Origin: Raillietiella orientalis
Taxonomy: Eukaryota
Reading direction: 5' to 3'
DNA: 64,000 nt
NCBI GenBank assembly: GCA_036172245.1
Contig: JAYWIR010000038.1
Span: forward strand, 496,001 to 560,000
Under the pieces are notes generated by a model. That model had not been told where the DNA came from. It worked only from the letters and a program-made list of their open reading frames with translations, and made no database searches. Below are positions 930-63,240 of this stretch, piece by piece. A program made the translations under genes and the position numbers. Positions within the stretch are counted from its first letter, which is position 1. Every line of letters begins with the position of its first letter.

Positions 930-1241
930 CCCACTTTTTCACCCATTTTCTCCGTTTTTCTGGAATTTTCTTGCGGCGGACGAGTCTCCACATTTCTGGG
1001 ACCCTTTTATTCGACGATCCAGGGTGAGTTCCTTACTTGGAGCAGTCTCAAAAAGTCACTCTGCAAAAATCCAACGGGAACTCGGGGGTTGGTCCTAGAC
1101 CAGCCAAAATCCAGGAAGACGGGGTGTTTTTGTAAAGTTCCAACCTTCTCGAACGGCTCCGGCGAAAAGATGCTGAAGACAATACTTCCGCAGTTTCAGT
1201 CGGTCTTCAAGGGCACGGAAAGATTCAGGCGGTGGAGATGA
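930..1241 (+). pseudogene. Degenerate BAF-like (helix-hairpin-helix) unit
   Basis: FSPIFSVFLEFSCGGRVSTFLG matches YSPSFDVFCKCTSMKSPISQIPG of the 36655-37008 ORF (SPxFxVF, then V/I-S-x-hydrophobic-x-G) with a 1-aa offset; the downstream part is poorly conserved. Confidence 0.4.
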
Positions 1242-2049
1242 ACGGTGGTGGCGCTGTATTCGCTAATAGCGTTCCTCTGCTCCTTCTGGTGTTCTTGATG
1301 CTGGCGGCTCGGACCGTCTGAACGGGAAAAATGGTGCGGTAGCTATCCATTTTCCCGGAATCCTCATCCTGCCAGCGCAGAGTGGAGTGGGTGAGTGTCA
1401 CTGCACTGTTCCGGGTGGGACCCTCCTTTAAGGGAACTGGATGCATCTCGGGAGAAAAGGAAGGAAGGGAGAGGGGGAAGCATTCATTTCCACTGTGGAC
1501 TCATCCACGTTCTGCAGTTCCAATATGAAGGGTTTCCGCGCGCTGTCACTCCGCATGAACCAGTGGCGGGACACACCCGCCCACTCCCTGCAGCTCCCGG
1601 CACCGTCTCCGTAACCGCGGATGACGTTGGGGTGATCTCCAGCCGTGCCGTCTCGTGACCTATGGACTCCATCGGGCTGGAAAATCTTCATCTAGGCCCA
1701 GCTTGTCCCGCGCAGCGGCTACCCGCCAAGCGCGTGCGCACCGCCGGTCCACTTTCGATCATCGGTCGTAGACAGGTTCTCTGCCAACACTTTTCGGAGC
1801 TGCCACGGGAGGAAAGGTGGGGGTGGATCTAGAAAACTGTGGGAAAGAACCCATCCGAAACACCCCTCATCCCAGCGTAGAATCGCCACCGCGCAGCCAC
1901 GGTTTGGGGTGACCTTCGACCAGCTCAGCGAGTAGGTGGGCTGTCCGGTCTCCAGAGAAGGCGGGACACTTCCCGGAATCCCCGGTCAGCAAACCAGGTC
2001 CGGGGCTAAAGAGAGGGATCACCAATGCGCAAACCAGCGCAGAAGTGAA

Positions 2050-3535
2050 ACCGGGAAGCATCCTGAACGTTGGCAACCTCCCGGCGCTACGAGGTAAGTC
2101 GAGGGTTTGAAGCCGAAAGGAGAAAAATTCCCGACAGAGCCCTCGTCTCGACAAGGAACTTCCGTCCCTCTCTGAGACATGCTCGTTGTTTGGACCGGTC
2201 TCTCTTCTAGTAGGAAGGAAGTCCTCTCTACGGGAGCGCGGCCGCGGTGGGAGACCACGGATGCATGGGCACGGGTCTCTCCCGGACAGACCCGGGACTA
2301 ACCCGACCCTATCGCACCTCCTGAGGGGCAGCGCGCCCCCACAAGAGGTGTGACAGGACCCCGAGGAGTGGGGCGTGCCCCAGACGCAGCGCCGTGCAAC
2401 TTACAGGAGCGCGGCGGCAGGGGCCGACCGGCCGGGCTGGAGGTCCCCTGCTGCGTGACCCACCAAATGACTTGGCCCGAGAAGTTTCAGGTGCCGCGGC
2501 GCCAGGCGCTGGCGGGCGGACCGTTTTGACTCCCACCCCCGGATGCAGTAGCGATGATCACTTCGACCGTCGGGCCGCTGGCGCTGCAGAAGCCGCGTGT
2601 TGGCGACCCGCGGCGTCTGCACGGTGGCAATGGGGGGGAGGAAAGGCAGCAGCCACTCGCTTCACCTCACCTGCGACGCAAGAGGTGGCCTCGCCTCCGC
2701 CCCGAATTCAAGGAGGGAGCAGTCCAGGTCTCGGGAAGGCCACGGAAAAGGTGCAAATCGGAAGTCCAGCGACCCATCACCCCTACCCCCATCCACGCAC
2801 CCCTGTCCCATGGACCCGGTGTTTCCCCACACCGCTCATCGATTTATTCATTTTTGCCCTTCTTGTCCTCTTGGCCCCTCTGTGCCAGGCGCTTTTTCTA
2901 CCCTCCTGGCCACCGGCCTGTGTCGCGGAGCTTCCCGAGTCGCGCCCCAAGGACAAGTGGATGCACCTTAGGCAGATGTCCCGGAGTGACCGAGTCACAA
3001 ACAGCAACAACAGTGTTTCCTCCAGAACACGACGCCTCCCTCGTGACTTCCCGCTAAGGAAGGGTGGAGAAGGGGAATCGGGGAGGATGGAAAGATGCTC
3101 TTCACTACTGCCCCGTTCGGATCACTTGCGAAGAACAATGCCTTCTCTAAGCTTGGGTGAGGTGAAGGTAGTGCTGGAAGCGAATCCCCCTGGCATCGCC
3201 GTCCGTCCAAGACAGGACCGTGAGTGTGGGCGGCGACGAGGGGCACCGATTCGAATCTTCCGAAAGGGGTCGGTGGTTGCCAAGCGACGGGGGAAGGTGG
3301 GGCTGAGGGCAAGCTCGAGCTCTTTTCTTCTGCCCTTTCATCTACATTTCGATCGCATCGGTCCCGGGGGAGGAAGGAGTACAACGGATGAGTCAGGAAG
3401 CATCCTGGGCGTTGGCAACCCCCTGGCTCTGCGAGGGAGGTCAAGGGTTCGAAACCGGAAGGGGAAACCGCCTGAGAGAACCCTCATCTCGACAAGAAAC
3501 GTCCGCCCACTCTGGGACCGACGTTCCTTGTTCAG
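2050..3535 (+). repeat. Two diverged direct copies (~2050-2190 and ~3392-3535) of a ~140-bp GC-rich segment
   Basis: GGAAGCATCCTG..CGTTGGCAACC..GAGG..TCGACAAG.AAC.TCCG present twice; probably fragments of one repeat family. Confidence 0.7.
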
Positions 3536-3679
3536 CGCGTGAAGCACGAGATGGACCGATGCATCGAGTCGCTCGAGCTTCCTAAATGCACTCCAGCGCC
3601 CGAGGCGGCGCGTTCCGCTTTCACAATTCCTCTATTGCATGCGAAATTCTGAAAGCGGCCACCGCACCATCGAAGCTTC

Positions 3680-9649: not shown

Positions 9650-10265
9650 ACCTCGGGCGTCCAGGTCCTCCTCCGCGTTGGCTGCCGTGAGGCACCGGAC
9701 GTTGCGGGTTCGAATCCCTCCCCGGGTGAAAAGCCGACGCCAAGAAATGGGGCGCGTCGTGGGTTTATGAGTCTTCCTCCCCAAGATGACGCCGGTTGAT
9801 CCCGGTTAAATTCGGATGCGGCGACACTGGCGGGAAGGTGGATGCCCCCGTTGACCGCCCGGGATTGATAGCTGATCTTCCGGGGTCCTTCCAGGACATC
9901 AGAGAGTCCTTCGTGGTTCCTCTCCGGTTGTGAAAATGGGGATGCCCCTTCTTGGGGGGAGCGACCCTCCATCGCGTACCACGGAGCTGGCTTTTCCCTC
10001 TCCAGAGCGTGGAAAAGGAGCGGCTCCCTTCGGAAGCGATACTTCAGAGAAATGGGGAAGCGTCCCTTCGCGGTTCCCTCAGAGGAGGGGGAAACGAGGA
10101 GCGGATCCTTTCCAGGGGGTCCCCCCGGAGAGAACCAGGAAGGTATTCTTCCCTTCGGGGCTCCCTTCCCAAGAGTAAAGGGAACAAGCTCCTGCCCCAG
10201 GAGCCCTTCGCGGATTCATAAGGCGGTCCCCTACCGGGGCACCCCCCACCTTGAAGAGTTGACGT
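9650..10265 (+). mobile_element. tRNA-headed dispersed repeat (SINE-like or LINE 5' leader), copy 1
   Basis: B-box GGTTCGAATCCC at 9707-9718; body motif GGAAACGAGGAGCGGATCCTTTCC shared with other copies. Confidence 0.75.
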
Positions 10266-14520: not shown

Positions 14521-14589
14521 CACTAAGAATGAAGATTGCATCTCCTAAAGAAGGGGGGATTGGAGGAGGCGAAAATTTTCTCTATTTTG

Positions 14590-15300
14590 GCCCTCGTCGG
14601 CGGCCGCGTGGCTACTGCGGTCTTGGCGCGTTGCACCAAGCGTTGCGGGTTCGAATCCCAACCGGGATCTGGGTACGCCAAAGTGGGTTTCGGTCCCCCC
14701 CCCCCATGCAGTTGATACTGGTTGGCTGAAGGTTTTGGGTGCGGCGGTACTGGTGGATGCTCGAAACCGGATGTCCCTTTGACCGGCAGGGATTGGAAGT
14801 CGACCGTCCGAGTTCCTTCCAGAACATCAGGGACCCCTTGGTTCCCCTTCGGTTGTGAAGATGAATCTTCCACCCGGGGGGACCCTCCTTTGCATACCAT
14901 GGAGCTGGTTAATACCTCCCAGAGGGGGGTCGCCTCCAGATTGTGAAGTAGCGCTCTGCTCCCTTCGGGAGCAACCTTTCGGAGAAATCGGGAAGCATCC
15001 CTCTGGGGTTCTCTTCAGAGGAGGAAACGAGGAGCGGATCCTTTCCGAGGGGTCTCTCCAGAGAAGAAACGGGGAGGTCTCCATCCGGGGGTCCCTCCGA
15101 AGAGAGCAAGGAAGATGTTCTTCCCTTCGTGGTTCCCTTCGGAGGCAAACAGGCTGCAGGGTTCCCTACCAAGCGTGAGAGGAACGGATTCCTTCCCCCA
15201 AACCCCTTCCCGGATTCATGAGATGGTCCCTACGAATCCGAGAAGAGCACACGCGTCCACGGGTGGCGCGATCCGTGTTTTAAAGAGCTCTCGCGTACTA
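14590..15300 (+). mobile_element. tRNA-headed dispersed repeat, copy 2
   Basis: GGTTCGAATCCC at 14648-14659; body colinear with 9650-10265. Confidence 0.75.
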
Positions 15301-17229: not shown

Positions 17230-17745
17230 GCGGGAGCCCCGAAGAACACCTTCCTGGTTCTCTCCGGGGGGACTCCCTGGAAAGGATCCGCTCCTCGTTT
17301 CCTCCTCTGAAGGAAACCCCGAAAAGACGCTCCCCAGTTTCTCCGAAGGGACGCTCCCAAAGGAAGCAGCGCGATTCTTGCACTCCGGAGAGACATCAAC
17401 CATCTCCTTGGTACGAGATGGAGGTCCTCCTCAAGAGGGAGGGGAAGATGAGCGGCGTACGGCTCCATTTTCACAACTGGAGGGTAACCTCGGAGGACTC
17501 CTTGATGCCTGTGGAGGATCCCAGATGGTCAACTTCCAGTCCCGGCCACTCAACGGGGCATCCGACCTCGACCAGTGCCGCACCCGAAGCCAACCGAGGA
17601 CAACCAGAGTCACCCTGCGGGGAAGGGAGGGGATGAATCGAAACCCACGACGCACCGCCCCCGTACTCGGAGTTGCTTCCCGGACGGCATTTGAACAAGC
17701 GACGCCCAGTGACGCACGCCGAGGCCGCGGCCACACGCCCGCCAA
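17230..17745 (-). mobile_element. tRNA-headed dispersed repeat, copy 4
   Basis: GGAAAGGATCCGCTCCTCGTTTCC (reverse complement of the family motif) at ~17279-17302; colinear with copy 1. Confidence 0.72.
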
Positions 17746-19780: not shown

Positions 19781-19826
<46 letters not shown>

Positions 19827-21819: not shown

Positions 21820-22700
21820 GCCCGCGTCGGAGGCTTTGTGGTTAAGGCTTCCGCGCGTGGCTCATGCGTCGCGGGATGGAATACCCCGGCAGAAACTGAC
21901 GCCACTGCGTCGTTTGGGTTCCGAGTTTCTCCTGCAAGATGGCGCTGGTTGGCCTAATCATTCGGGAGTGGCACCGGCGGTGGATTAAGCCGGAGGGCCC
22001 CGATGAAGGCCGGAACAATGGGAAATTGACCTCCGGGTCCTTCCAGGAATGAAGGAGTGGGGAGTTCCCCCTCCGGTCGTGCAACGGAGAGCGGACCACC
22101 CACACCGGGGGGATCCCTCCGGTTTCAAGATAGAGCAGGAGCCCTCACATGAACCTCTCCAGTTGTTCAAAGGAGCGGACTCCCCCTGTTGCGGTGGGGG
22201 GACCCTCCGAGTCGTCGCTTCTCCAGAAGAGTGCAAGGAAGCAAGCGAGAGCGATTCCCTGCGGGAAGCCGCAGCGCCCCTTCTGAGTTTCGGAAGCGTC
22301 CCTTCGGGGTTCTCTTCAGAGGAGTGAACAGGAGCGGTTCCCTTGCGGGTTCCCTTCGGAGAAGATGAAATGGGGAAGACCACCCTATCAGGTGGGTGCC
22401 CCTCCGGAGTGAATGAGGAAGGCGATTCCCTTCGGGGTTCCCCTTCGCAGACAACCAGGGTGGGAGGTGCGATCCCCTCCCCAAGAGTGAGAGGAACGGA
22501 CTCCGGGTCTTCCTGGATTCATAGGGCGGACCCCCTTCCGGAGTGCCTCCCCCTATCTTGAAGAATTACAACGCACCCTCCGCGGGTGGCGTGGTGTTAA
22601 AGAGCCAAGTGCGCGCCGCGAGGCATGCGACCGGCTCTTGGGGTACTTAGCTAACCAAAAAAAATAAAAACCCGAAAAAAACAAAAAATCTGGAAGGGAA
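21820..22700 (+). mobile_element. tRNA-headed dispersed repeat, copy 5
   Basis: A-box-like GTGGTTAAGGC at 21838-21848 and a degenerate B-box; very similar to the inverted copy at 25213-25945. Confidence 0.8.
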
Positions 22701-24689: not shown

Positions 24690-25212
24690 TATCCTTCCTG
24701 TTCGCCTTGATTTCCGCGTTGCACTCCAGAAGAAGTTTAGCTATCTCGGTTCTGGTGAAAGCTGCAGCCTTCAGAAGAGGGGTGCGTCTCTCCGTTGTCA
24801 TCTCTCGCGTTCACCTTTGCTTTGTAGTCCAGAAGGAGCCTCAGAATTTCGTGGCTTGATTTCCTGGAAGCATTGTGAAGCGCGGTCGCACCATCCTTCC
24901 TCCTGGCGTTGACATCAGCGTTGTGATCCAGGAGCGCCTTCACTATGGGCAACCTTTGATTCATGCAGGCTACGTGGAGGGACGTTCTTCCGGCCTTGTC
25001 CTTTGCGTTCACATCGGCATTGCGCTGCAGCAACAGCTCCACGATTTCAACGTCTGATCCTGCGGATGCGATATGGAGTGCAGTTGTTTCTTTGTGCTTG
25101 TGCCTAATACTGATGTCAGCATGGGAATCCAAAAGGAGCTTAACGATTCCAAGGTTACTGTATTTGGCAGCGAAGTGAAGCAGTCTCGTTCCTTCCATGT
25201 CCTGTGCATGTT
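24690..25212 (-). pseudogene. Ankyrin-repeat protein fragment (~5 repeats), frameshifted and truncated
   Basis: LLHFAAKYSNLGIVKLLL, TALHIASAGSDVEIVELLL, TSLHVACMNQRLPIVKALL, TALHNASRKSSHEILRLLL; a frameshift near 24780 continues as (T)PLLKAAAFTRTEIAKLLL. The N-terminus of the predicted ORF is repeat-derived. Confidence 0.9.
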
Positions 25213-25945
25213 CTTCAAGATGGGGGGCACCCCGGAAGTGGGGGTCCGCTCTATGAATCCAGAAAGGCTCGAGAGTCCATTCCTCTAGCTCTTGGGGAGA
25301 GGATTGCACCTCCCACCCTGAGGGACACCCACCTGATAGGGTGGTCCTCTCCATTTCATCTTCTCGGAAGGGGACCCGGAAAGGATCCGCTAGCAGGAAT
25401 TTCTTCTCCGGAGGGAACCCGCAAGGGAACCGTTCCTGTTCACTCCTCTGAAGAGAACCCCGAAGGGACGCTTCCGAAACTCAGAAGGGGCGCTGCAGTT
25501 TCCCGCAGGGGAATCGCTCTCGCTTGCTTCCTTGCACTCTGTGAGGAGGCGACGGCTCGGAGGGACCCCCAACAGGGGGGTCCGCTCCTTTGAACAACTG
25601 GAGAGGTCCCTGTGAGGGCTCCTGCTCTATCTTGAAACCGGAGGGATCCCCCCGGTGTGGGTGGTCCGCTCTCCGTTGCACGACCGGAGGGGGAACTCCC
25701 CACTCCTTTATTCCTGGAAGGACCCGAAGATCAATTTCCCATTGTTCCGGCCTTCATCGGGGCCCTCCGGCTTAATCCACCGTCGGTGCCACTCCCGAAT
25801 GATTAGGCCAATCAGCGCCATCTTACAGGAGAAACTCGGAACCCAAACGACGCAGTGGCGTCAGTTTCTGCCGGAGTGTTCGATCCCGCGACGCATGGTG
25901 CCACACACGGAGACCACCGTAACCACACAGCCTCCGACGCGGGCC
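25213..25945 (-). mobile_element. tRNA-headed dispersed repeat, copy 6, abutting the ankyrin fragment
   Basis: High-identity inverted match to 21820-22565. Confidence 0.8.
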
Positions 25946-39414: not shown

Positions 39415-40186
39415 TTCCCCCCGGTTGAGTCAGGGCGTTTATTTATAGAAAAATAAACTTACAAGTCTGTGGCAGGACCATTGGTCCTGCCACGTTACAG
39501 ATGTAACCATGGGAACCTGCCGAGAACCGGCACGCAGGTCGGCGAGGTTCGCCCAGGCAGCAGAGGGGAGGAAGGCAAACAATAACAAAAATGCATAAAA
39601 GCATAAATATATACAAGAAAATTTGTGGGGGGGGAGGGTTGGGAAGGGATCACCGGGTGCTGGAGGGTGTCCTCTGAATCCTCTCCAGGATGCTGGCAAG
39701 TTCCTACTTTATAATTCCCAGATGGAGCGAGCAACTTGCAAGATCAGAGAAATGGATGGCATCCCTGTCGTCCTGGCCTCCTCTGGCGCTGCTCCAGGAC
39801 GCCATAATCCCGAGTGAGCAGCAGAGTCCTGCTGAGGGTGCAGTCGGCGTGAGGGCGTCGCGCAGGAAGGGACGCTTCATAACGTCTCTGGAAATACCTT
39901 CGGGAAATCCGCAGGAACGCCGCAAAGCGTTCTCACAAGGGACGGAGGGCAACACAACCCACAAGCAGATGCAGGAGGGACTCTTTCTCCACACCTGCGG
40001 CACTTTGGGCTTGCACTCCCCCGGGTCCAGTGGCGCCGGCAGGCGTTGCGCGGGAGGGAGGCCCCGATGCAACAGAAGGATCGCCGACTCCTGCCATTTT
40101 AGGGGAGGGTGGCACTGTTCCAGAACTCTGGGAGATACTGCACCTCCTCCGGAGGAATTTGTAGCAGCTCTGCCCAGCGTAGCAGT
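39415..40186 (-). mobile_element. LINE 3' fragment
   Basis: ESLLHLLVGCVALRPL..RDVMKRPFLRDALTP; tail AATAAACGCCCTGACTCAACCGGGG. Confidence 0.8.
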
Positions 40187-43100
40187 CCTTTATTTCCACC
40201 CGCTCACGCCGGAACGTTTAGTGTACAAAAAATTATTTACGAAATAAGTCACATCAAGTACAAAAAATGCCTTCCTCCGTGGTGGCTTCACATGACCACT
40301 ACGAGATGCCTCGGAGGCGCTGCTTCTCGGGAGCAGCTCCCCCGATGAGGTCCACACTGGAGGAGCAGGGCAAGGGGTAAGACACAAGAAAAACACACAC
40401 AAGAAAAACACAAAAGTGGAGTTTAAAAAATGTTGGGAGGAAAGGGAAGGGATCACAGGTTTATTCCTGGGGTCTTTAGCATCCCCTGGAGGGTGTTGGC
40501 AAATTCCTCTTCCTCTTGTTGCCAGAGATGTGGCCTTCCTCACAAAGGAGCAGACGATTGGGATGACCTCACCGTTCGACTGGCCCCTTTCGGCGCGGCT
40601 TCTCGCCGCCACCATCCCACGAATGCATCACAGAACTGCAAGGGAGGAAGCTGCAGGCGACATCGAGTCGCGTGCGAAGAGGCGGCGCAAGACCTCACCG
40701 TCATTGTCCGCGGGGAGTGGGAGGGCCGCAGCGAAGCGTTCCCGGACGCTCAGGAGGGCAACGACACAATCGGACAACCGGTGCGGGGGAGAGGGTTTCC
40801 CGTTCCTCGCACCTGGCACAGTCTGGGTCCGTACTCCCCCCTGTCCAGTGCGTTGCATGGGATCGCCCTGCGAAGCAGCTGCAATGCCGAGTCCCGGCAC
40901 TCCAGGGGAAGCGTGGAGCTGTCCACACACACTGGAAGTACTTCTGCCTCTTCAGGAGGAATATCCAGGAGCTCGGCACGGCGACGAACTCCGTCGGGGA
41001 AGGCGGCGAGTGCGGAGGTGTCAGCCAGTTGATGCTACCGTCCAGCATCCCAGCTGCTTCTATTTTCCCGCGATCTCGCCGGATAATTGCCATCTTGCAA
41101 GGTCACCGCCGTGCCCATTTCGTTGTATTGTGTTGAGGGTGTCCGCAAGTGGGGTGTTCCGCTAGCTGGCTGTCTTCCATGGACAGCCCACGATTTCTTG
41201 CAGCGAGCAGCGAGCGCAGTTCGAGAATCGCAGTCATCGCGATGGCTCCGGGCGCGTGCCGTTTCTTTCCACCCACGCCTGACCCGTTTTTTTTTTCCAG
41301 ACCTGCAGTAGCAATCCTTTCAGTGGGACACTCGGGATGGCAGAGTCTTCCAGCTCCCGAGTTGTCCACGCACCCAGATGTTTCTTCCTGTTGTACACCT
41401 CGCATCCTATCTTGATCGAAGACTGCTGTCCCTTGCTTCCCTTAGGCGAGGTGAGCCTTGTCCACCGACAAGGTGAGCTGGAGCAAGGGAGGTGAACGAA
41501 CATTATCCAAGATGTGGCGGCATCCGCCAATTCGTTGGTTGTCCAGCCGTACAGGGGTCTGGTCAGTCCTGCAGTGTCTCAGAAGGGACTTCCGCCTCGC
41601 CGGTAGTCTACTGTCGTCGCTTGCCCTTAGAGCAGTCAGAGCTGTGGCAAGAGGTGCGCCGGTCAGGGTCCTCAACTCTTTCGGATCCTGAGGCACCTCT
41701 CTTGAAGGATGGCTGACGGAGAGTCGCAGGGGGCGGAGTCCCACCTGCGCGCATTACTTCGCATGCATTCCAGGATGGGCGGGATCGAACCGTTCTCATG
41801 AGGAGCACCTGGGGCGAAGTGTGGCCTTGCACACACTTGAATTCAGCGCCACCGCTGCCACCAGCAGCGACATGCAGTCCTTCGGCGCTCCAGTTGCCCT
41901 CAGCAGCCCGACCGGGGAATTGGTGCCACTCAGGCAGCAACTGGGAGGAGACCGCGTCCTGGGTTCCGTCCCAATGAGGACAGGCCCTTTCTCATGCGGA
42001 AGACGACGTGGGAGAGGGAGCCCCTTCTCTTCCCGTCTACAGGTTTCCGAACTCTTCATTTCGGGAGGCGTCAGCGACGGCGCTTCCCTTCTCGGCGGAC
42101 CCCTGGGAAGAGCAGCCGGTCCTCTGGAGCGCCCTGCAATCCGTCTGGGTGCGCCCTACCTGCTCACACAGCTCCTGAAGCTCAGGAAGCTGGCGGGAGT
42201 CTTTCGCGCCCTGCTTGCAGCCATCCTCGTGAGCGCAAGCAGGGCGTCGCCTCCCGGGTGGACCTAGGGGGCGTCTGGAGGAAGACCTCAGGGACGGCAA
42301 GAGCTGCCCCTTCGGAAGTACCGTGACCCCTTGATACAAGGCCGTCGGCGGCGCCGTGACGAACCTCACCGAGGGCACATGGCTCCTCTTCTCCAGGAAG
42401 TGCGGAAGCCTTGTCCATCTCTTCCTCGGAAACAGGCAGGTGGCCCGGGTCTATATGCAGCTGAGCTTCCGCACTCTTTGACAGCCCCTCATCCTGCTAC
42501 CCTTCCTCTCCGTGCCAAGCGCAGGAGGGAGGTCATGGCTTGGACCGGTCGCCGCCGCTTCAGCAGCAGCAGCGGACGGGTTCTCTGGAGAACGCCTCCG
42601 ATCCGCAGCACACCGAACCGATCACCCTGGTGGTGGTCCACGACACCGTTACCCATCCAGCACGGTGGGCTGTCTTCCCGGGAGAACCCACCCTCCCGGA
42701 CCATGACGACAGCCGCTTCCTGCCAGCAGAAATCGCCGTACCACCCTGGTGACTCCAACGTTCCTCCGTGGGTGAAGTAGGGCAGCTCCGCGGCTGCACT
42801 GCCGAAGTCTCACCCACGTGGAGGAGGCGCCGTGCCGATTCGGGCATTCGCCGTAAATCTTTCATGAACCTGCACACACTTGCAGGGTCGCATCCCTCCT
42901 CAGGCCGCACAGAAGACGGACGGTGCGTGCGACCTGCCCCATTGGTTTGGACCGAGTCCCTCGTAAGGGCAGACTCATGCTCAAGTGGTCCATCGTCGTC
43001 CTTAAAGTCCACCCTGCCGCTTCCAGTCCCACGGAACAGGGTGGTGGTGCTTCCAGAGGGCTTGGAGCGAGACCAGCTGCACTTGGGGAAGCCCTTTGGG

Positions 43101-44850
43101 ATCCTTCTCTTTTCGCTGCCTTCCCCCCAGCTGTTTCCCCCCTTTTTCTTCTGGGTTTTCTCTTTTTTGGTCCTTAAGGGATGCTGAAGAACCGTCCGTC
43201 TCGTCAGGGAAGGCTCTCGGAACTCTCCTTTAACGCGGTTCACGCCATCCGAGGGTGTGTGACTCTTCAAGGATAGGAGGTGACCCCGGAGGGACCACCA
43301 CGTGAATTCAGGAAGGCTCCAGTGGGAGGAGTCCTTTCCTCACTTACAGTTGGTAGGAGAACCCCGCAGGAAATCTCCTCTTTCTTGTTCTATCCGGAGG
43401 GATCGCCCGGAATAAGGGAGCGCTCCTCGTTTCTTCTCCGGAGGGCATCCTCAGGGGAACCTGGTTTCTCCCTATGAAGAGACGCTTCCCAATTTCTCTA
43501 GGGAACGCCTTCCCGAAGGCAGCTGCGCTCTTCTTCTCGACACCCTGGAGGTTGGTCCTCCATGGCATGCGATGAAAGGTACTCCTCCGAGGGAGGAGGG
43601 AAGGGCTCCCTTTTCACAACCGGAGGGGGAAACCCCAAAGAAGCTCCTTGAGCTGTCCTGGAAGGACTCTGGAAGGTCAGCTTTCCACCCCGGCCAGTCA
43701 ACAGGGGCATCTGGCTTCCACCAAAAGCAAAGGAGCCACCGCGCTACCCCCCCTTAGGAAACACATGGGCAGCAGCCTCACGGCTAGATGGGAGATCACT
43801 GTGGAAACCTCCGGAGGGAGAAAAGGACTGGGCGAGTGGACGACGGACCAGCTCACTGACGCTGCGACCTCGAGCGCTGGATCTCATGGACTTTTGCTCT
43901 GGAGCATGCTACGGGGTATTCCAGAGGAAGACTTGCAGTAGCTTCCGGTGTTCATAAACACCCGCACCCTCCCCTTAAAGTGGCAGGAGTCGGCGTTGAT
44001 GCTGCTGCGCTGGGGCTTCCCGTGCAACTCCCGCCGGCATCATTGGACACGGGGAGGGGGGGAGTGAACCCAAACCGTTCAAGCTGCGGGGAGAGGGAAT
44101 CCTTCCCGCACCTCCTAGTGGACTGTGTTGCCCTCCGACCCCTTTGGGAACGTTTTGCCGCAACCCTTGGAGCCCCCGGCAGCAACTCTAGAGACCTTCA
44201 GAAGCGCCTCTTCCTGCGCAACGCCCTCACGCCGACCGCATCCCTCCCTAGCAGCACTTTGCTGCCCACGCGGCGGGACCGTGGCTGCATGGAGCAACGC
44301 CAGAGGATGTCATAATGACAGGGACCCCATCTACTTTTCCATCCTCTTCATGAGGACAGCGTCAAGATGACCCCACCTGGGAGCCTTGAAACAGGAACTT
44401 GCCGACATCCTTACAAGGGTGCAGAGGACACCGTCCAGCACGCAGTGATCCCTTCCCGAACCTCCCATTTCTTGACTTTACGTTTTTCGGTTTCTTTTTT
44501 TTGTTTCTTTCCCCTTCCCCTGTGTTGCCGAAGCGACTCTCGCCAGCCTGAGTGCCAGATCCCGGCAGGCTCCTTCTCGTAGTTATAAGCAACGTGTCAG
44601 GATCAAACTTCCTGCCACGACGTGTGTATTTATTTTTTATAAGTCAGTGTTCCGATGTGACCGGGTGTCTACTAGAAATATTATGGTTTAATGTGCCAAC
44701 CAGCTCCATCCTGCGGGGGAGACTCTCAGTCCACGATGCGCACCCCGTTGTCGTCGTCGGTCCTTCCCCTGGCGGGATTCGAACCCACCCCGCTTGGAGA
44801 CCACGCACGCAAAGGCAGCAGCCTCACGACCTCCGAGGGCGGACACTTGG
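40187..44850 (-). mobile_element. Internally deleted LINE: tRNA-like head, 5' leader, ORF1-like region, endonuclease remnant, C-terminal Cys region, tail; no RT core seen
   Basis: B-box at 44774-44785; leader homologous to the tRNA-headed repeat (44850-44690, resuming ~43740-43150); DPDCARCEERETL..LSDCVVAL..VLRRLFARD at 40.7-40.85 kb; tail at 40191-40220. Confidence 0.62.
43760..44670 (+). mobile_element. 5'-truncated LINE nested within the leader of the minus-strand element
   Basis: SCGERESFPHLLVDCVALRPLWERF..DLQKRLFLRNAL; ends GTGACCGGGTG; both flanks belong to one contiguous tRNA-headed leader. Confidence 0.8.
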
Positions 44851-46850: not shown

Positions 46851-49800
46851 TAAAAATGCGGCTCGAGAGAGACTTCCCTCGAGGTGTGTGTCTGGGCAGG
46901 GGAACGTATCCAGGCCGTGGGCTGCCGGTTGTCTAGGGGTTCTGAAGAAACTGGTCCGAGATGAGGTGTTTCGAGGAGGAAGGGGAGGAGGTAGCAGCGG
47001 ATGCAGGCAGCACCGCCGGCCTCTGGCTCTTACACCAAGGCGCGTGCGTGCCTGTCCCGTCCGTCGGGGGTTTTCATCCTCTCACACCGGAGAATCTTCC
47101 GTAAGATCTGATTCGCCAAGAAACTGTCAATCCATAGAAAACGTCAGTCCTCCCCAGGGGGAATGCAAATCCCACCACGCCGCTACAGTGCAGGGGAAGG
47201 TTCTGCTCGCGAGAGGATTGGTCAGCGAAGTCCACAAAGGGGAAGGAATCGAAAAAAAAAAAAAAGGACATAACAAAATTGCCTTTAAAAAAAGACCATG
47301 GGGATAAAGGGGTAGGGAAGGGAAGGCATGACAGCCACCTTCCTGGAGTCCTGGGCACCCTCTACAGATGCACACAAGCTTGTAAGGTAAGGGCTGAAGC
47401 CATCTTGTCACCATCCTCGGAGAAGGTGACACAACGGGGTTGGAGTCCATGTTGGTTTGGAAACTCAGGAAGGGGTCGGGTTCTCTCGACCTTTTTGCAA
47501 ATAACTGTCCCTCCTAACCCTTTTCCCGAACTCGAAAGGGTCATTCGCGACCTCTTACCTCTTTCTCGCTACTTGCGGGTCGGCTTATCCGGCCAGGGTG
47601 CGAGCGTCTTTTACAGCCTCCTGAGCTCAAGGTCCCGAATGGCTGTCTCGTGGGTACCTGTAGTATACACTGAAAGGATCCAGTTCTCCTTATTCCCGAC
47701 CTCACGGCTCTTGCCTCTAACAGACCTGTGCGTCGCTGCTCTCAGAAGTCCACATGTCTTTACTTGGAAGCGTGAAAGACGAGATGTGAACGGACGACCC
47801 TGCTCAACCGGGTGTCAAACTCTCGTGCCCGTGGTGGTCGCACTTGCGTAAAGACTGCAAAAGTGCAGACTGATACTCTAAGATGTCAAGTTATGTTCTT
47901 GTATCAGTTTTCGGGCCTCTATTCTGGCGCATCGCAAGCATTGCCCCCCAGATGAACTTCTGGAAGCAGCAAATCGTACTGAGATTCCTCAATTCTATTG
48001 AAACGATTTCCGACTACAGTTTTTGAGGAGTGGGTTTAGGGTTGGAAATGCCGGACGTGCTGTACGGTCAAAGTCGCCATGCTCTTTGACCGTACAGCAC
48101 GATTTCAGCTTTTTGCTTTGACGAGGTTCGCAGCAAAAGTTATTCTTTCACGACCAAAAAGCAAGGCAAAGAAGCCATATGCAGACTCCAGAACTCCGTG
48201 AAAGGGAAAGTTATGAGCTAGGTAGGTTTTGATAAAGGTTCCAGGTGTTTGTTAGGAAATTTGTAGATAGCATGAAGGCACTGCTTCGTTTCGGCTGAGC
48301 TCACGAATGCCTACCGCTGAAACGTACATCACGTCATGCTTTCAAACCGCTGTCTTCGTACAACCATCGTGTACGAAGACAGCGGCTGTTCCTTCAGTTT
48401 ATTCATGGATTACCATGCAGTTACGCTGGTGTGTCTCTTTTATGAGTGATGCTGCTGCGGTATCAATGCAGCAATCTACTTGTGAGAATACAAAATGTTT
48501 GAAAATATAACATGCTTGATAGTTTTCCACGAGTCTTTGCTTAGAACCTTTTTTTTGCTTCTTAGGAACTCATAGATGTGAATGTTCTCTCGAGCTGATC
48601 ATGCTTTGCAATTTTCGATTACATATAAACTAGAAATTTGCAGAATGATCTTCATAAAAGAAATATTTTGGAAAAACATATCGTTTCCTAATAACTGTAA
48701 CTATTAAAAGCTCAGCATTATAATTGTCGCCTTGTTTGCTCACGATCGTTTCTAAAAAAACCTGAGCTATATGTGAAAGTGTTGCATTGAAGATGGTTCC
48801 TACATCAAATATTAGAGTCCAGATCTATATTCTCTTCTTCAAATGACTGAGCATTTTTGAAATTAGATATTTCTGATATCATTTCTACATCCTTGATTCC
48901 TTGATAGCATTCTTTTATAACAAAATTGCCAGTGAAATGAATTTTGCAATTGGCGTGAACTCGTTAAAGGCTGTAAGGGAGATAAATTTAAACTTATGCA
49001 GAGGAACAGATATGTGTAGTAACGCATAAAAACAGACCTATTCGGAATGAAGTGCATCTCCAGAATGAGTTGTGAACACACTTTGTTAGTAGTTTGTGCT
49101 GAAAACCAGTTTTGTCAGATTGCAAATGTGCATTACTTAATAGCGTTAGTTTTTACAGACTTATCGACAATCAATTGGAATTCATTAAAAATTCTGGAAA
49201 CTTATTTCAATAAACTGTATATAAATCGAAAAAATAACGAAATCATGAAAAACGAGAAGAAAAAAAAATGGAGATAAAATGTCCCTTGTCTGAAGAATAC
49301 TTGTGCGTGTCATGGAATACTAAATTGATACAATTTCATTTACAACAGTCAATGCAGAACTGTTTAGTAAATGATGTAAACTGCTTACCTAAACACTCAA
49401 CTCTTCACTGGGAGTAATGTTCGCTTTATAATGAAGACAACTGGTTGCATTTGCGCAAGGCAACCCTGTGCAATTGAAGCACGAGATGTACATGGAAAGC
49501 ATGTCTTGTAGTGATGCTTCCTTGCGTTGCTGGCCAAACGCTGCCTCAAGTGTTTTCGAGAACTTGCTTGCATGGACCGAATTGTATTCTTATTCCTATT
49601 ATGATTAGAAGATAATTGTGTATCGTGGTTAGATATTTCCATGTTTTATTATAGGTAATTCATTTTGAAGTATAACCGAGAATGCTGATTGTCAACAGAT
49701 CGAGTTTACCTATTAAATGCCAATGCTTTTGTTCCTTTGCATTGTTTGGTTCCATTGAATCACCTCATAAAATCTGGAATCAATCTGGGCAATAATCAAT

Positions 49801-50143
49801 TGTCATTTCTTTTGTGTGTGCAGAGAACTGCATTTGTTCCGTGGTAGTAGCGAAAGTTTCTTATTGCCTAAACCATTGGTAATCGAATCATTACCATTCA
49901 ATGTTGTATAAAACTCCAGAATAAGTAAAACAGCTCGAGACTGAATTGTTACTGAATTCTCACATTGCTAATTTCAAAATGAGTCTATTGCTTCCATTCT
50001 AAAAGGAAGTGAACACATGAATCTTGTGATGTAGAAAGAAAAAAACATTATTCCTTTGCAACATCATTCACGATTGTTGGATTGTTTAGAGGTAAGTGTG
50101 GAATGTTTCATTTCGAGACAGCCATGTGTTTATCGTAGTGGTG

Positions 50144-51509
50144 ATGATGGAACCATCCATGATTAATGAGTATTCCGAATATCAGTCGTTCCTTCAAATG
50201 TTGCATAATGACTCGAAGGTAATAGCCGGCATTTGCAATTCAGGATCTATGTTAGAGTTACGTGAGAAAAAAATGAGCATGCCAAGTAAGCAAGAAGCCA
50301 TAAAGGTAAATATTCTATGATAGAGTCTTGAAAGGGCATTGTTTAGGATTTTATTCTTAAACATGTTTCAAGCATCTCACATCTGTAACCAAAGTAGTTA
50401 TCCAGTTTTATTGAGATGATTTTTAGTTTCCAGAGATACGCCGTGAATTATGGAAGGCGTTTTCAAGTTTAGCTGCATTAGTTAATTTTTGTGACCAAGT
50501 AGAGCAAAACAAAGCAGGCACAGAACATTCTCAATGGGAAGAAGTTGAGCATCATGTTGTAAGTTTCTTGTGCTTCTTGACAAAAACATTTTGCTTGTGC
50601 TAGAATGTAATCAGGGAGATAAGGAAGAAGTTCTCATCAGAAGAAATGGAATATGTGATACAGAAGAAAATTAGGCAAGTAGCCAAAAAAAAGAGATACT
50701 TAAGAAGGCAAAAAGAAAAAAATAGAATTCATCGAGAATCCATGTTAAAGCAGCGATTTTTAAAGGAAGCAGAAATCAATAATTGGTTAAATAAATTGCA
50801 AAATGAGGAAAAAAAGCAAAAAGAGGTTGTAAAGCGTAAAAATTTTTTCTCCTAAATTGTCATGCAGCTAAAAGAAGTCGGAAAAGAAGCTGGTGATGTT
50901 CTACCAGAAATTCAGCACAAAATTAATGAACTCACTGAGTTGCAAGCTCTGTTAAACAATTTGATACAACTACGTAAGCTGCGTGCTTCCAATACTTTTT
51001 CTCATAAAATTGAAATATCTGAGGTGCAGAACTCTTTTTTTGACACATTTGTAAGTGAGTTTCTTAAATTCCTTGTGGTTCACTTACCATTCTTCCTATT
51101 TGATCAGAGCATCTTCAGCAATCTTTAAATCACTATAAAGACTGCTATGAAACAGAAGCTTGTGCATTGAAGACAATGTCAGCATTATCTTCAAGTACTC
51201 GTGCTGATGATGATGCTCGAAACAAAAACATTGAAACATGTCTACATTCTCTTTTTGGCTCTGCACCAAAGACTGATCATCATTTGTTTTCTGCCTATCA
51301 GCAGTTAACTAAAGCAAACAAAGATCCTGATTGCCTCATCCAGATTAGGTAACATTCTACATTTGCTGCACACACATTTTTCTAATTATTTATGCAGATT
51401 AGCTTGGGACCGCTATTTGCATTCACAAGGGTCCAGTATCCCATTAGGGTGGGTTATACCCACACTCCCAACATCGGATGATTGGAAAGCATTTTTAATG
51501 AGTCGATGA
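50144..51509 (+). CDS. PDCD7: Programmed cell death protein 7 / U11-U12 snRNP 59K homolog; exons approx. 50144-50305, 50427-50558, 50604-50825 (or 50828), 50868-51054, 51108-51348, 51398-51509
   Basis: GT-AG introns join in frame. Basic coiled coil KKKRYLRRQKEK..EINNW, L..LRKLR, and the family-like C-terminus LIQIRLAWDRYL..GSSIPLGWVIPTPPTSDDW. The 5' exon structure and start codon are less certain. Confidence 0.88.
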
Positions 51510-52619
51510 TCCTATGTATTTTCATTTATTGTGGACAGTCAGTTGGATTTTTCAAATCAAGATGTACTTACTACTGAGTCAGCATTTTCATTACTAAAAA
51601 TATAATTTATACTTAAAAAAAAAAAAACTCAGGTGCCTATTTCTTGTTTTCATTCCAAACGGTAATAGGAATTCACAATTTGGTCATTCACAATGCTGCA
51701 TATGTAGTGATGAGTATCATGCTTGAAAAGAAGAACATGCATGATTTTATTCCATGTTATATACGTTTTCTGTACAGTTATATTTGTGGTCAAAACTTCA
51801 TTGTCTTGGGAGACATTGGATTGTGATGAATGTTTGAGACCAGTTCAAGGATGACAATTTTGATTTGTCCACAAATCCTCACATGTGAAAGTTTTTGTAG
51901 AATAGTCATCCATGTGCTGGCTTGGAGTATCTTTGCTTTTATTTGTTTGATTTATCTGAAACGTAGACCAAGGTTTCTGGCAGGTGGTTATCCTTCGATA
52001 CTTTTACTGTTTCTACAATTCCACAATGAGACATTGTCCTCAGTTGCTTCATGTGCCAACGCCTTCCTTAACTGTATGGGTTGCTTAGTTTTCTGAGAAA
52101 TTCAGCTGTGGGATTGCCTAGTCTCATAGCAATGTGCTTGCCATAACTTCAGTTTACTCCTTGCAATCAATTCGAAAGTTGTAGTTCTTCAGTTTTCTCT
52201 TTTTGTAACTGTTCATTTACAGTTTTAGGTAAGTCACAGAAACCTGCTCAAGTTGGTGCCTCTTTGTTTAAAATCTTATGTGAAAACTAAATTTCTCATA
52301 CACAAAGTCTTTTATCTTTCTAGTTAATGTTGCTACAAGCTGCTGCAGTATTAGTGTTATTTTTTCTTTGTATTGGGCTGAATCTTTGATGTAATTATAA
52401 CCCATTTCCTAATCTCCTGGTTTGTACTTGATTATTAAAACCTATGCAAATAAGACAAGTCATTTTTTTATGTTCACGCAATTCCCATTTTCTGTAGCTT
52501 TGTATTTGTATTATATTCTTTTACTCCAGTGCCCATACATCAGGTGTGATTTTATTTCCTGTAAAATGCATACCTCATTTACATTAAATTGGTGACATTG
52601 GTTAGGTCGGAAAGCACAT

Positions 52620-57960: not shown

Positions 57961-58270
57961 AAAGTTTCTCTGGATCGTGGGTTGATTACCACCTGGAGCG
58001 GCTGTGGCTTTTTCACGGACCGACATCTGACAGTTCGTCTGCTTCCCATGTGATCATCAGATGGAGCATTTTAAAACATGGTGTCTTTGCATTGTACAAG
58101 GTACACGAGTGCAAAGTGTAAGGGAACAGAAGGCGACTTGTTTCAGTCTTATGCTGAATCCAGTTCGAATCCGGAACACACACCTATTCAGATGAAAAGC
58201 TCACTTGAATTGTGGCTGAGGAATCTTCCTTCCTTCCTTATTTCGACCATATCACTAGGAGCACACAAGA

Positions 58271-58573
58271 GTGCTTGTAGATCCTGTCTTCCAGGTCGCT
58301 GAAGTAGACGGGGAACTTCACTATGTGTGTACTACCACCGGTCACCTTTTTTTTTTTTTTTTTTTTTTTCTCTGTGACCGGGAGAAGCACCTTGAAAAAC
58401 TGCTGCAGATTTTCTTCCTAATGGCGAAAGTAACGAGCACGGAAGAAACATTTCCGGTTCCCCTTCCAGAAGCACTCACTTTGTTTAATCCAAATGTCAG
58501 TCGCATTTTTTCTTCTTCTTCTGCTTTCCCCGCTTTCCTGGTTGCTCGTGGCAGGCAGAATTCTTTGAAATGA
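58271..58573 (+). pseudogene. BAF-like unit interrupted by a poly-T tract
   Basis: DPVFQVAEVDGELHYVCTTTG is in register with SPISQIPGMNLILNAVLESQG; HLEKLLQIFFL resembles TIEQLYSLWLL. Confidence 0.45.
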
Positions 58574-58820
58574 GATGCTCGAATGTATTATAAAATGGAA
58601 GTGCATCTAAAAAACGTCGAGACAAACTTAGCTATTAGATTCCATTTTGGAACATTTTCCAGAATTCCCTTGTTTACTGAGGATAGATACTGCAGGCACC
58701 ATTCTAGCAGATGTTCGTTTTTCTTTCTTTTTTTCTTTTCGAGCAACGTCAGCAGACTTGATCTGAAAATCCCCATCATCTCCGATTCTGGATGCTGTGT
58801 GAAAAAAGAACAGATAACCA

Positions 58821-59147
58821 ATGGAGGTGAGGTTCGTGACGACAACTTCAGAAGTAAAGTGCCTCGGTGTAGGGCGCAGGCACGCAACAGAAGCTCCTAC
58901 CCACGGTGTTCAAAACGCGGATGTCTTCCGTTGGGAAGATATAGAGGAATACAAAACACACACAAATTACTGGAGGGTTCTTGCGCGGGTGGTGGCGGTC
59001 CAAAGTCGACGTGGGTTTGCTTCTCTGTCAGGGGACAAAGAACGTGGCATGCCAATCAGCTCGGAGGCTCAGCCTAGACATATCGGGGAATCTGTGACAG
59101 GAATCCTCCGTGAGCTCTGGTTGATGCCAGGCACTTGCGAGTCGTAG
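58821..59147 (+). CDS. BAF-like ORF, 108 aa (gene or recent pseudogene)
   Basis: GVGRRHATEAPTHGVQNADV is in register with BAF [20 protein letters not shown], and AVQSRRGFASL with AKQSRDCFGCL; short internal deletions relative to BAF. Confidence 0.55.
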   Translation: MEVRFVTTTSEVKCLGVGRRHATEAPTHGVQNADVFRWEDIEEYKTHTNYWRVLARVVAVQSRRGFASLSGDKERGMPISSEAQPRHIGESVTGILRELWLMPGTCES

Positions 59148-59820
59148 GTGTGCACTGAGGTGGGTGTGTGCTGCGCCTTGCTCAGGGAATGCCGTCACCG
59201 CTGCCGGGGGGGAACACGCGCATTCCCGGGTCACGTGACTGGATCAGACGAAGCGAAACCCGATGGGTAGATCCCGCATCGCCGTTTTGATCCTGGGGCC
59301 GCTGCAAATGCGGTACGAGACTCGGGGAAGGTGGGCACGAGTGGCTGTTGTTATCCTTGCTAGCCGACAACCGAAGCTTTCATCCCTTCATTATGATGGG
59401 AAGCGATCCTAAGAATTTAGGAAATTGCCGAAAGCACGGTTATCAGTGCCAGCAAACAGCTGATTGAAAGTGGACTATTAATAGCTGGTTGCCGGGTATA
59501 AGGAATGAAAGACCTGCCGCTCTTGAAAAAAAAAAAAAAAAACAGGAAAAGAAATGTTGTTTTTTCTGCCCTTTTAAGGAACATTTTACGTTTTATAATT
59601 AGTCACAGTGCAGTCAGTTGCGACCGAGTAACTGTACAGGAGATGCCAAGTTATTAATATGCTAGGAGATCATTTATCAGAAACACTTGCGAGCCACCAT
59701 TCAAAGTTACCTTTCTCTATGCGGGAAAATGAAAAGCCGCCACCCGGTCAGTTTGGCTCCGGGGTTCGTGATTCCTGATAAAGCGTGCCTGCCATGTCCA
59801 TGAACGAAGGAACGGGAAAG

Positions 59821-60742
59821 TACGGGGCGCATCTCGAAAGTAAGGGTCCATCGGATATAAGGAAAGAAAGAGCAAACAAGAGAAACAAAAATATGCATTG
59901 GTGGTTCGAAACACGTACATCCCCGTGCCGTTTTTCTACGAGGTCACCATTTTTCCCCTTTGTACACTTTCGATACCGTGGAAGAAGCTCTTTTTGAAAC
60001 CCTCTGCATCAAATTCTGCCTCCTGGGAGTTCAGGCAGTTCAGCAGCACTGCAGTTTTGCACTCCTCACTTTCCCCCTCGAGTCGCTGAGCCACTTCTGG
60101 AGGTGCGGGAAGGAAGACGTGGTGGTAGTCACTAGGCAGGACTGATGGAGAGGTTCCCGTTTGAATTGTCTGGAAATGTCTGGAACGTGCGGACAACAGG
60201 GTGTGGGACTCAAGAGTGTGTGCTTTTGGTGGACTTTATGGAGCCTGGAACAACCATCACTTCGCAAGTCTACTGTGCAGAAACACTTTGGAAACGGCGG
60301 CGTGTCATTCAGAACCGACGACGTGGAATGCTGACATCAGGAATCGTTCTTCTCCTTCACAACAACGCGCGCCTTGGCAACGCATGCTGTCTTCACGTTC
60401 CAGACATTTCCAGACAATTCAAACGGGAACCTCTCCATCAGTCCTGCCTAGTGACTACCACCACGTCTTCCTTCCCGCACCTCCAGAAGTGGCTCAACGA
60501 CTCGAGGGGGACAGTGAGGAGTTGCAAACTGCAGTGCTGATGGGCTGCCTGAACTCCCAGGAGGCAGAATTTGATGCAGAGGGTTTCAAAAAGAGCTTCT
60601 TCCACGGTATCGAAAGTGTTTGGGTGAAAAATGGTGAAATGGCACGGGGATGCTTAGAACCACCAATGCATTTTTTTCCCCTCCTATTTGTTCTTTCTTT
60701 CTTCCTATCCGATCGGCCCTTACTTCTGAGATGAGCCTCGTG
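59821..60742. mobile_element. Non-autonomous mariner derivative with ~360-380 bp inverted arms
   Basis: Centre encodes VLLVDFMEPGTTITSQVYC..IQNRRRGMLTSGIVLLLHNNAR; arms encode PSDYH..EELQTAV..AEGFKK in opposite orientations; ends TACGGGGCGCATCTCGAAAGTAAGG and CCTTACTTCTGAGATGAGCCTCGTG. Confidence 0.9.
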
Positions 60743-61045: not shown

Positions 61046-61243
61046 CCGTGTTTTTCAGACGCCTTTTTTTTGTTTACAAGCCGAGCAACCCATTCGTTTA
61101 TGGTTTACTCAGTCTACGTGCTCCCGTGTGTGCATGACACGCGAATAGCTGGGGCGTCTGCAGCCAGAATCGCCAGGATGGATTACCTGTTTGATTTTGG
61201 CCAAGGTTTCGAGACTTGTAAAGATTTATTCGAAACCGCTTGA
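61046..61243 (+). pseudogene. BAF-like unit (C-terminal part of ORF 60824-61243)
   Basis: SDAFFLF matches SEAFWSF. Removing an apparent VYS/VYV micro-duplication puts VLPCV on TIPGV and KDLFE on BAF EDLFR. Confidence 0.55.
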
Positions 61244-62289
61244 GAGGAATTCCCGGGAGCTTTTTGGCTGACTCCAAGAGTACAAAGGAAGTGTCAGTGA
61301 GCAGGGAACTGGCGCCACGAGCCTTGGAATCGTCCGATGGATCCGACACCAAAAACACTTCTTTGCTTGCTCATTCTTATTCCACACTGTGTCCTTACAG
61401 AATCAGTACTTATGAGAATTTTCTAAAACTCTTTTGTCTCGTAACAGTGGATTGGTACGACCATTTTTTTTCCATCTTCAAGAGTCTCAGATCGGAAAGC
61501 GCTTAAAACAGCTCCCGAAATCATTTCCAGAGTTACATACCGAATGATCCGGGAACCTATGAGGAGCATCTAAACCCCCTCCTCCCCCCCTTTTTTTTTT
61601 TTGAGCGAGGCTAATGCCATAGACCAGTAGAAGGGAACTCGTTCAGATGAAACCCAGGTTCTTGCAGCCGAAGTTCATCTTTCAACAGATGCGAAACGGT
61701 ACTTTGGAAGCTGGATGTGTTTTCCCTGATTCCGGAATTTCAGAATTTGCGCATTCTGTGGAATTTTTAACTCTTAGATTTTCATGAAAACAAAAAAAAC
61801 AAAAAATTGATCTTTACGTGACAGCCTCCTTTTGATGGCACCGAGAGGTTTGGCAGGGAGGCGAAAACCTGAACGCGGCAGTGGAAAAGCTGTAGGGAGC
61901 ATCCTATTTGCAGCAGCACGGCCACATTCCTCTTTTTTTTTTTTTTGCAAGCAGTAACTGTCAGCAAGATGCTTTGCCACTTCTCCCGTTGGTCGGTGCA
62001 ACAACAGTCAGCAGGAACTTTCCGAAAGTGATCCATGCATCCACTCCTGGAGACCATCCTTTTGCCCAAAGCAAACCACTCGCCATATACACTGTGGATG
62101 CTCATTTTCGACCGACACCCTATTCCCTACAAGCACGCTGTGTGCTCAAGTCTTCGTGTTGGTTACATCCCGCGTGGGTGCAATGTCGAGTTTCCTGCAT
62201 CTTCTCGAAAAGGAATAATTTTCGGCCGGATTGAAAAATGCAAAAAAAACGGCTTCCAAGGACACAGGTTTGATTTTGAGGAGCATGCC

Positions 62290-62460
62290 GCCTAAGGATC
62301 CCTGACTTGAAGGCAGCATTCGATACGGAAGATCTCAATTCATTCGTCACACCCTGATGAAACTCTGTCTTCTGGTGCTCACTCACCTGTGTCCGAGGAA
62401 TTCCTGGCACCTCACCGGGAGTGTCAGTGCACCTGACAACACCTCCACTTTCCACGTGTG
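62290..62460 (-). pseudogene. Frameshifted BAF-like unit
   Basis: EVPGIPRTQVSEHQKTEFHQ is in register with TIPGVSSRILQLLSRRGFRQ; LPV lies just upstream in the adjacent frame. Confidence 0.42.
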
Positions 62461-63240
62461 ATGCAGTGTTTTAACGCTGCCTAACATTGTTTCAGGAGGT
62501 TTCCACGACTTTTTTTTTTCCGATCCCATGTTTCCCAATGAGCTCCCTGATTCGGGAACCCCGGAGGGAGGTAGACTTACCCACACCGAAGAACCCATCT
62601 TTCGGAAATGAACCCAAAAATCAGAAGTTTCGTATACACCTCCTTACGATGTTCACTTGCAGAGACTTATTGTACGATTTCCTCTAGAAAGCCAAACTTC
62701 CATCGGTGCTTTTATCGGTAGCATATCAAAGGAAGGAAGGTTTCGTGCAACTCTCGAGGAGCACGCGGAACTAGGAGCTCTACTAAATTGCGAATACGTA
62801 GTATTTTTATTTTTTGACAATGAACGTATACTGAATAATCATTAATTCCCTTTCAAGGAATTGTGCGAAAGAACGCAGGAATGCCTTTCTTGCTGAGGAG
62901 TCAGTTTCTTACCTCTAATCTCCTCCTACCCTGCCAATCCGTTGCACGCAGGAACAAACCGTTGCTTTTGTCTTGGCATGCTGGTTCTAGTAGTTTCTCC
63001 CGAGGATCCCGTATAACTCAGGCCTGGATACGTCAGAGTTCCCGATGTATGCAGCAATCTCTACAGAATATATACCAAACGTCTGTGTTGAGGGTTTTCA
63101 TCCTCTGTTGTGTGGAAACACTAAAATGTTCACCTATATAAGGGGGCACCGCAGTTTTTCTTTCTTTCTTCCTTCATAGAGAGTCAGGGACAGTGCAACA
63201 TTGCTCCTGATTTAGTTTGACGAGTTTTTTGTGCCTTGAG

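Follow-up and report, generated by a model that had tools for sequence, protein, structure and literature searches.

Does the stretch of Raillietiella orientalis DNA analysed here hold an expanded family of genes related to BAF (BANF1; Pfam PF02961, SAM_BAF; PDB 1CI4, 2EZX, 6GHD and 9J8M), or only a few genuine members? The stretch comprises 64,000 nt of assembly GCA_036172245.1 (contig JAYWIR010000038.1, positions 496,001-560,000, forward strand) and is referred to as the window, with positions counted from its first letter. As a rule, BAF is encoded by one strongly conserved gene. A preliminary description, made by eye, had noted about 30 BAF-like genes and pseudogenes between the transposons of the window and had read them as a birth-and-death expansion. 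The window holds two BAF-fold members and no expanded family. The best explanation, to which we assign a probability of roughly 0.72, is a pair of tandem, same-strand and apparently intronless genes. Their products would adopt the BAF fold, a small helical domain centered on a helix-hairpin-helix motif, with sequences too diverged for the Pfam BAF model to recognize and with one more helix at the N-terminus. The two open reading frames (ORFs) are called ORF 1 (P0001) and ORF 2 (P0002) in the following, and their coordinates are given in Table 1.

Both ORFs lie on the minus strand with 1.6 kb between them, and their products are recognizable as paralogs. BLASTP aligns the two proteins at E 3e-8 with 25 of 104 positions identical (24%). 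In tblastn searches of the window they match each other at E 5e-5 and 2e-5, with all other matches at E of at least 1.6. The two proteins share the motifs S..F..F, [PD][VI]..[IL]PG and L...G[FV], and the residues I-P-G, L and G are invariant in the pair alignment. An extra N-terminal helix is mutually conserved in the pair and precedes the BAF-like core. The helix spans residues 2-19 in ORF 1, where the core covers residues 26-119 and a low-confidence tail begins at residue 128, and residues 4-15 in ORF 2, where the core covers residues 22-114.

Structure predictions place both proteins with BAF. AlphaFold2 was run without templates, with a two-row alignment of the pair as its only input. The ORF 1 model is confident and all-helical, with a predicted local distance difference test (pLDDT) score of 79.1 and a predicted template modeling (pTM) score of 0.75, as is the best ORF 2 model (pLDDT 86.3, pTM 0.83). 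In Foldseek searches of the PDB, the top eight rows are all human BAF for either protein. The ORF 1 matches have E 0.04-0.12, probability 1.00 and TMt 0.64-0.67, followed by the next match at E 1.7, and the ORF 2 matches have E 0.22-0.59, TMt 0.76-0.78 and a root-mean-square deviation (rmsd) of 2.6-2.9, followed by the next match at E 2.3. Structure comparison with VIA-align over 48,161 chains ranks the BAF chain 9j8m_K first both for ORF 1 (Z 10.8, rmsd 2.2 Å, 87 of 88 residues aligned; next Z 7.0) and for ORF 2 (Z 10.7, rmsd 2.2 Å, 86 of 88 aligned; next Z 6.2). The superposition sets model residues 26..119 of ORF 1 on residues 2..89 of the BAF chain. Sequence identity to BAF in the structural alignments is 13-20%. 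Among language-model neighbors in the ESM Atlas, SAM_BAF accounts for 15 of the 30 nearest clusters of ORF 1 (score 0.91) and for the three best rows of ORF 2 (0.89-0.90). The BAF fold is thus predicted over the whole domain in both proteins. The fold first proposed by eye is borne out for this pair, with human BAF as the top and well separated structural match. A homodimer prediction with two copies of ORF 1 residues 1-127, run without controls, scored 0.00 and gave no answer, which is evidence neither way.

Sequence profiles reach a smaller part of the two proteins. An exhaustive search with a profile of the pair against 1.84 billion representative proteins recovered five proteins at E <= 1e-3. 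These comprise a TPR protein and four long helix-hairpin-helix (HhH) repeat proteins (HHH_5, Cdd1, alpha-CTD). All five matches are confined to profile positions ~22-74, with the HhH-repeat matches over positions ~35-74. Using hhalign, columns 40-75 of the pair align with an alpha-CTD/HHH_5 repeat, which identifies the matched segment as the classic h-P-G-h...L...G-h hairpin. Judging from the sequences, the HhH motif is kept in both proteins, and DNA binding is a prediction only.

Whether the two ORFs are genes can be approached through their codon structure. GC content at the three codon positions is 0.59/0.35/0.75 in ORF 1 and 0.42/0.31/0.61 in ORF 2. The corresponding values are 0.51/0.44/0.73 in a nearby fragment of BRX1, a ribosome-biogenesis protein. 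The periodicity is strong in both ORFs and similar to that of the BRX1 fragment, which is a coding signal. Both frames are open across the entire domain at a mere 24% identity, which suggests that both copies have most likely been kept by selection. In favor of ORF 1 being a gene, its TAA stop also falls within an AATAAA hexamer. Taken together, at least ORF 1 quite probably is, or recently was, functional. Among the sequencing runs listed for the stretch there is no RNA run. One DNA run, with a share of 0.06, yields a 191-nt contig identical to positions 34628-34818, alongside two low-complexity matches, and has no bearing on expression or selection.

A number of observations weigh against two diverged BAF-fold genes. 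The sequence methods used link neither ORF to BAF. Pfam SAM_BAF, which has a gathering score of 25 bits, gives no match to either protein at E <= 10. No PDB chain is found at E <= 10 with the ORF 1 sequence or the pair profile, and the single match of ORF 2 in the PDB sequence search is an unrelated VPS13C chain (E 0.24). A word-indexed protein search with ORF 1 produced 45 candidates, none of them related, and the exact sequences of both proteins are absent from a collection of 15 billion proteins. No full-length relative was found among the 1.84 billion representatives, and conservation across species is therefore unsupported. Viral and metagenome contigs yielded no relatives either. On the structural side, both models share the same two-row alignment as their basis, the Foldseek E-values for BAF are weak (0.04-0.6), and the other four ORF 2 models reached a pLDDT of 71, 47, 46 and 43, giving a range of 43-86. 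Both proteins are acidic overall (isoelectric points of 5.4 and 5.6), which is neither for nor against DNA binding. Finally, repeats and gene pieces lie nearby, and the ORFs could be relics.

Relics would here mean old pseudogenes or retrocopies of BAF-like parents located elsewhere, non-functional and with frames open by chance in GC-rich DNA. Such an origin would fit the neighboring gene fragments, namely BRX1 residues ~45-207 and a PDCD7-like sequence spread over four ORF segments, as well as the several repeat families of the region, the frequent occurrence of open frames of 100 aa or longer and the lack of either ORF in the public protein collection. The C-terminal part of ORF 2 is also hydrophobic, and AlphaFold2 confidence is uneven over its five models. 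Yet open frames, GC periodicity and confident folding at 24% identity are unexpected after long neutral decay, and no poly(A) tail follows either ORF. We consider the relic explanation unlikely.

The resemblance to BAF might also have arisen by convergence rather than descent, with the pair representing a generic HhH or SAM-like domain. The unmatched SAM_BAF model and the sequence searches, which reach only the HhH motif of unrelated repeat proteins, would agree with convergence, as would the SAM-domain and RNA polymerase alpha-CTD structures that appear further down the structural rankings (Z 4-5.6). However, BAF is matched end to end in both proteins at a Z of ~10.7, about 4 above any other fold, and the language-model neighbors are SAM_BAF clusters and not SAM or alpha-CTD clusters. 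Convergence therefore appears very unlikely.

Transport by a mobile element or an integrated virus is a further scenario, since the pair lies in a 5.5-kb island with a copy of one repeat family at each end, the two in inverted orientation to each other (Table 1), and some ESM Atlas neighbors of ORF 2 are partly viral clusters. Self-blastn assigns the flanking repeats to a family of four copies at 64-69% identity, with the other copies at 43.8-44.6 kb and 18.1-18.6 kb. The bracketing repeats look like independent insertions, not the termini of one element, because their resemblance to each other is only 64% and further copies of this dispersed family occur in the window. Moreover, Pfam scans reveal no viral or transposase domain in the island, no relatives were found in viral contigs, and BFVD holds no BAF-like match (best E 0.74, probability 0.20). 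Cargo status is highly improbable. The preliminary description had proposed either such cargo or a role in genome defense, and neither finds direct support.

The window-wide family was evaluated against reversed and shuffled controls. Open frames abound in the window, which has a GC content of 35-66%: counted from stop to stop, 244 ORFs reach 100 aa or more and 642 reach 60 aa or more. Base composition alone explains why long frames are so common. Pfam scans covered the 244 long ORFs at E <= 0.01 and the 398 ORFs of 60-99 aa at E <= 0.1, and SAM_BAF matched none of the 642, including the three ORFs singled out beforehand as the best family members (starting at 34620, 36655 and 58821). A hidden Markov model (HMM) of the pair, applied to 1618 six-frame segments that are 25 aa or longer, recovers its two seeds at E 1e-81 and 1e-60. 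The next real match has E 0.84, whereas the best values from the reversed DNA and the reversed proteins are 1.4 and 0.61, respectively. The hhalign scores of the pair profile against the 642 ORFs are 450 and 293 for the seeds, followed by 19.9 for the next real ORF against 21.2 for the best reversed one. Scores of at least 15 are reached by 20 real ORFs, the two seeds included, and by 20 reversed ORFs, among 642 each. Frameshift-aware chaining of weak HMM matches on segments of at least 15 aa was compared with 13 controls (reversed DNA and 12 shuffles). Outside the seeds, the real sequence and reversed DNA each give 10 matches of 3 bits or more, and the 12 shuffles give 3-9. Chains that reach 6 bits are absent from the real sequence and number 0-1 in the controls. 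Apart from its seeds, the custom model thus matches the real sequence no more often than it matches reversed or shuffled sequence, an outcome named beforehand as speaking against the family.

Motif counts lead to the same picture. In the window motif scan, the core motifs [PD][VI]..[IL]PG and L...G[FV] are confined to the two ORFs. The motif S..F..F is frequent both in the real sequence (40 occurrences) and in reversed DNA (32), in each case owing to T-rich runs. QSR..F..L occurs once in the real sequence, never in reversed DNA and 0.1 times on average in shuffles, and the ORF at 58821 was probably picked for this single match. That ORF (58821-59147, plus strand) was considered as a third member and proved unrelated (hhalign score 14.9, probability 0.67%), and SAM_BAF has no match at E <= 10 among the 37 ORFs in 58191-59602 that are 25 aa or longer. 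A BAF-like predicted fold stands for two of the three ORFs, those at 34620 and 36655, and kinship at the BLASTP level reported above joins these two and does not extend to the third. Two genuine members do exist, and relics below ~25% identity or in pieces shorter than ~30 aa would slip through every test used, but with no excess over controls in the HMM, hhalign, chaining or motif counts once the seeds are removed, a failed third ORF, SAM_BAF absent from the 642 ORFs and long ORFs common by composition, a family of ~30 BAF-like genes and pseudogenes is scarcely credible. Motif matching by eye in GC-rich, ORF-rich DNA over-called ~28 of ~30 candidates and spotted both real ones.

Table 1. Features of the window, beginning with the BAF-fold pair and its island (positions in nt; AF2, AlphaFold2).
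Feature	Position	Strand	Basis
BAF-fold ORF 1 (P0001), 141 aa, stop included	34620-35045	-	translation, AF2, Foldseek, VIA-align
Part of ORF 1 superposing on whole human BAF, residues 26-119	34689-34970	-	VIA-align; coordinates computed from ORF start
HhH motif of ORF 1, residues 46-74, VDTIPGV...RRGF...	34824-34910	-	profile search and hhalign
AATAAA hexamer overlapping the TAA stop of ORF 1, possible polyadenylation signal	34619-34624	-	read from sequence; function inferred
BAF-fold ORF 2 (P0002), 117 aa, stop included, ends TAG TAA	36655-37008	-	translation, AF2, Foldseek, VIA-align
HhH motif of ORF 2, residues 42-70, ISQIPGM...SQGV...	36799-36885	-	pair alignment and motif scan
Interspersed repeat copy with weak zf-RVT match (LINE-like 3' end), left bound of 5.5-kb island	33141-33883	+	self-blastn
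zf-RVT match, weak	33364-33570		Pfam E 1.2e-3, 19.9 bits vs cut-off 27.5
Inverted copy of the zf-RVT-bearing repeat, right bound of 5.5-kb island	39443-40191	-	self-blastn
Ankyrin-repeat ORF, four repeats	24740-25480	-	Pfam Ank E 1.5e-32
Brix-domain ORF, BRX1 fragment	29128-29655 (match 29137-29640)	-	Pfam Brix and BRX1 comparison
PDCD7 pieces, four collinear, separate stop-bounded ORFs	50604-51506	+	Pfam best E 2.6e-7
Mariner Transposase_1 piece, weak	60136-60537	+	Pfam E 1.3e-4

The surroundings of the pair consist of repeats and pieces of genes. The BRX1 fragment is a single open frame, 49-57% identical to animal BRX1 in one comparison and 47-54% over 29137-29640, and the source is therefore probably an animal that lacks close relatives in the databases. 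The C-terminal half of BRX1 is absent from the window, and the piece is probably a truncated retrocopy or a gene fragment. Four consecutive short ORFs match PDCD7 positions 56-306 in order, and the locus resembles a frameshifted PDCD7 pseudogene. Coinciding with these PDCD7-like pieces, the GC content falls sharply from ~55-60% to 35% over ~4 kb (47900-52000). Inverted repeats at 21820-22565 and 25211-25944, 86% alike, flank and partly overlap the ankyrin-repeat ORF. A second set of inverted repeats, at 59822-60198 and 60385-60741 and also 86% alike, overlaps the weak mariner match, and the element as a whole (59822-60741) is a decayed mariner or an element resembling a miniature inverted-repeat transposable element (MITE).

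Several interspersed repeat families are revealed by self-comparison of the window. A direct repeat of ~765 bp with 98% identity connects 40187-40951 with 63241-64000, 23 kb apart and with the second copy running past the window end. This repeat is a recent duplication or a young element. A dispersed family with 68-73% identity has copies at 9751-10259, 14734-15104, 17232-17656, 43262-43719 and 22292-22504. One copy holds a tRNA-Pro-like structure (10115-10206, minus strand, detected with ARAGORN), and the family may be a tRNA-derived short interspersed nuclear element (SINE). Rfam finds no RNA families in the window. The region had been called retroelement-rich, a view weakly supported by the repeat families and the weak zf-RVT and mariner matches, whereas the Pfam scans detected no reverse-transcriptase ORF among the window ORFs.

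Among known proteins, BAF is the natural reference for the pair. Across all 88-89 residues of the BAF domain the predicted fold is the same, and an HhH motif lies at its center. The differences are also substantial. The pair lacks any Pfam or PDB sequence match to BAF at 13-20% identity, the proteins of 141 and 117 aa carry an extra N-terminal helix in contrast to the ~89-90 aa and free N-terminus of BAF, and two copies stand here in tandem. To our knowledge, BAF-L is the only well-known BAF paralog, and it is easily recognized by sequence. PMC13443024 describes BANF1 as an 89-aa homodimer whose monomers each bind double-stranded DNA non-specifically through their HhH motif, with a groove in the dimer that takes up LEM domains. 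BAF-L (BANF2), about 90 aa long and 53% similar to BAF, is reported to heterodimerize with BANF1 and to have weak or no DNA binding (PMC13443024, PMC8877947). BAF-L is itself a diverged BAF paralog and a plausible functional model for a diverged copy, although the two proteins studied here are longer and their divergence is much greater. Cichlids offer a precedent for BAF-family genes duplicating locally, with copy-number variation of banf2 (banf2w) at 2-5 copies, one of them sex-linked (PMC8268354). The cichlid copies differ by only a few substitutions and have three exons, whereas the pair shows 24% identity and is apparently intronless. The RNA polymerase alpha-CTD, HHH_5 and Cdd1 domains share the h-P-G-h...L...G-h motif with the pair, but the match covers only ~36 residues and the fold match is far weaker (Z <= 5.6). 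A search of the full-text literature found BAF-L and banf2 duplications and no BAF-fold paralogs as diverged as this pair, which is not proof that none is in print.

How such a pair may have come about and what it might do can be outlined for two diverged BAF-fold genes. Most likely, the pair arose by an old tandem duplication, with both copies subsequently kept by selection. The analysis establishes the paralogy, the predicted fold and the HhH motif, and we infer that the proteins may be expressed, dimerize and bind DNA, possibly with a chromatin or defense role. If they behave like BAF, they would bind double-stranded DNA non-specifically via the retained HhH motif. Alternatively, the proteins might pair with canonical BAF and modulate it in a BAF-L-like manner. 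Judged by fold and motif, these two roles are the most likely ones. The free N-terminus of BAF regulates the protein by phosphorylation. In the pair, regulation would probably differ because the added helix takes the place of this free N-terminus. A bolder possibility is that the pair belongs to a larger BAF-derived family that is specific to its lineage, evolves fast and has further copies elsewhere in the genome. BAF coats or bridges poxviral and retroviral DNA, and such a family might have been recruited against retroelements or DNA viruses, for instance by coating or bridging foreign DNA, and could have diverged past recognition in an arms race. We regard this extension as quite unlikely.

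Two proteins with a complete predicted BAF fold at 13-20% identity and with a new helix suggest that the fold is more plastic than the Pfam family implies. BAF-fold copies as diverged as these escape routine annotation. If the pair is expressed, it would provide a natural experiment on which properties of BAF, including dimerization, DNA bridging and LEM binding, survive extreme divergence.

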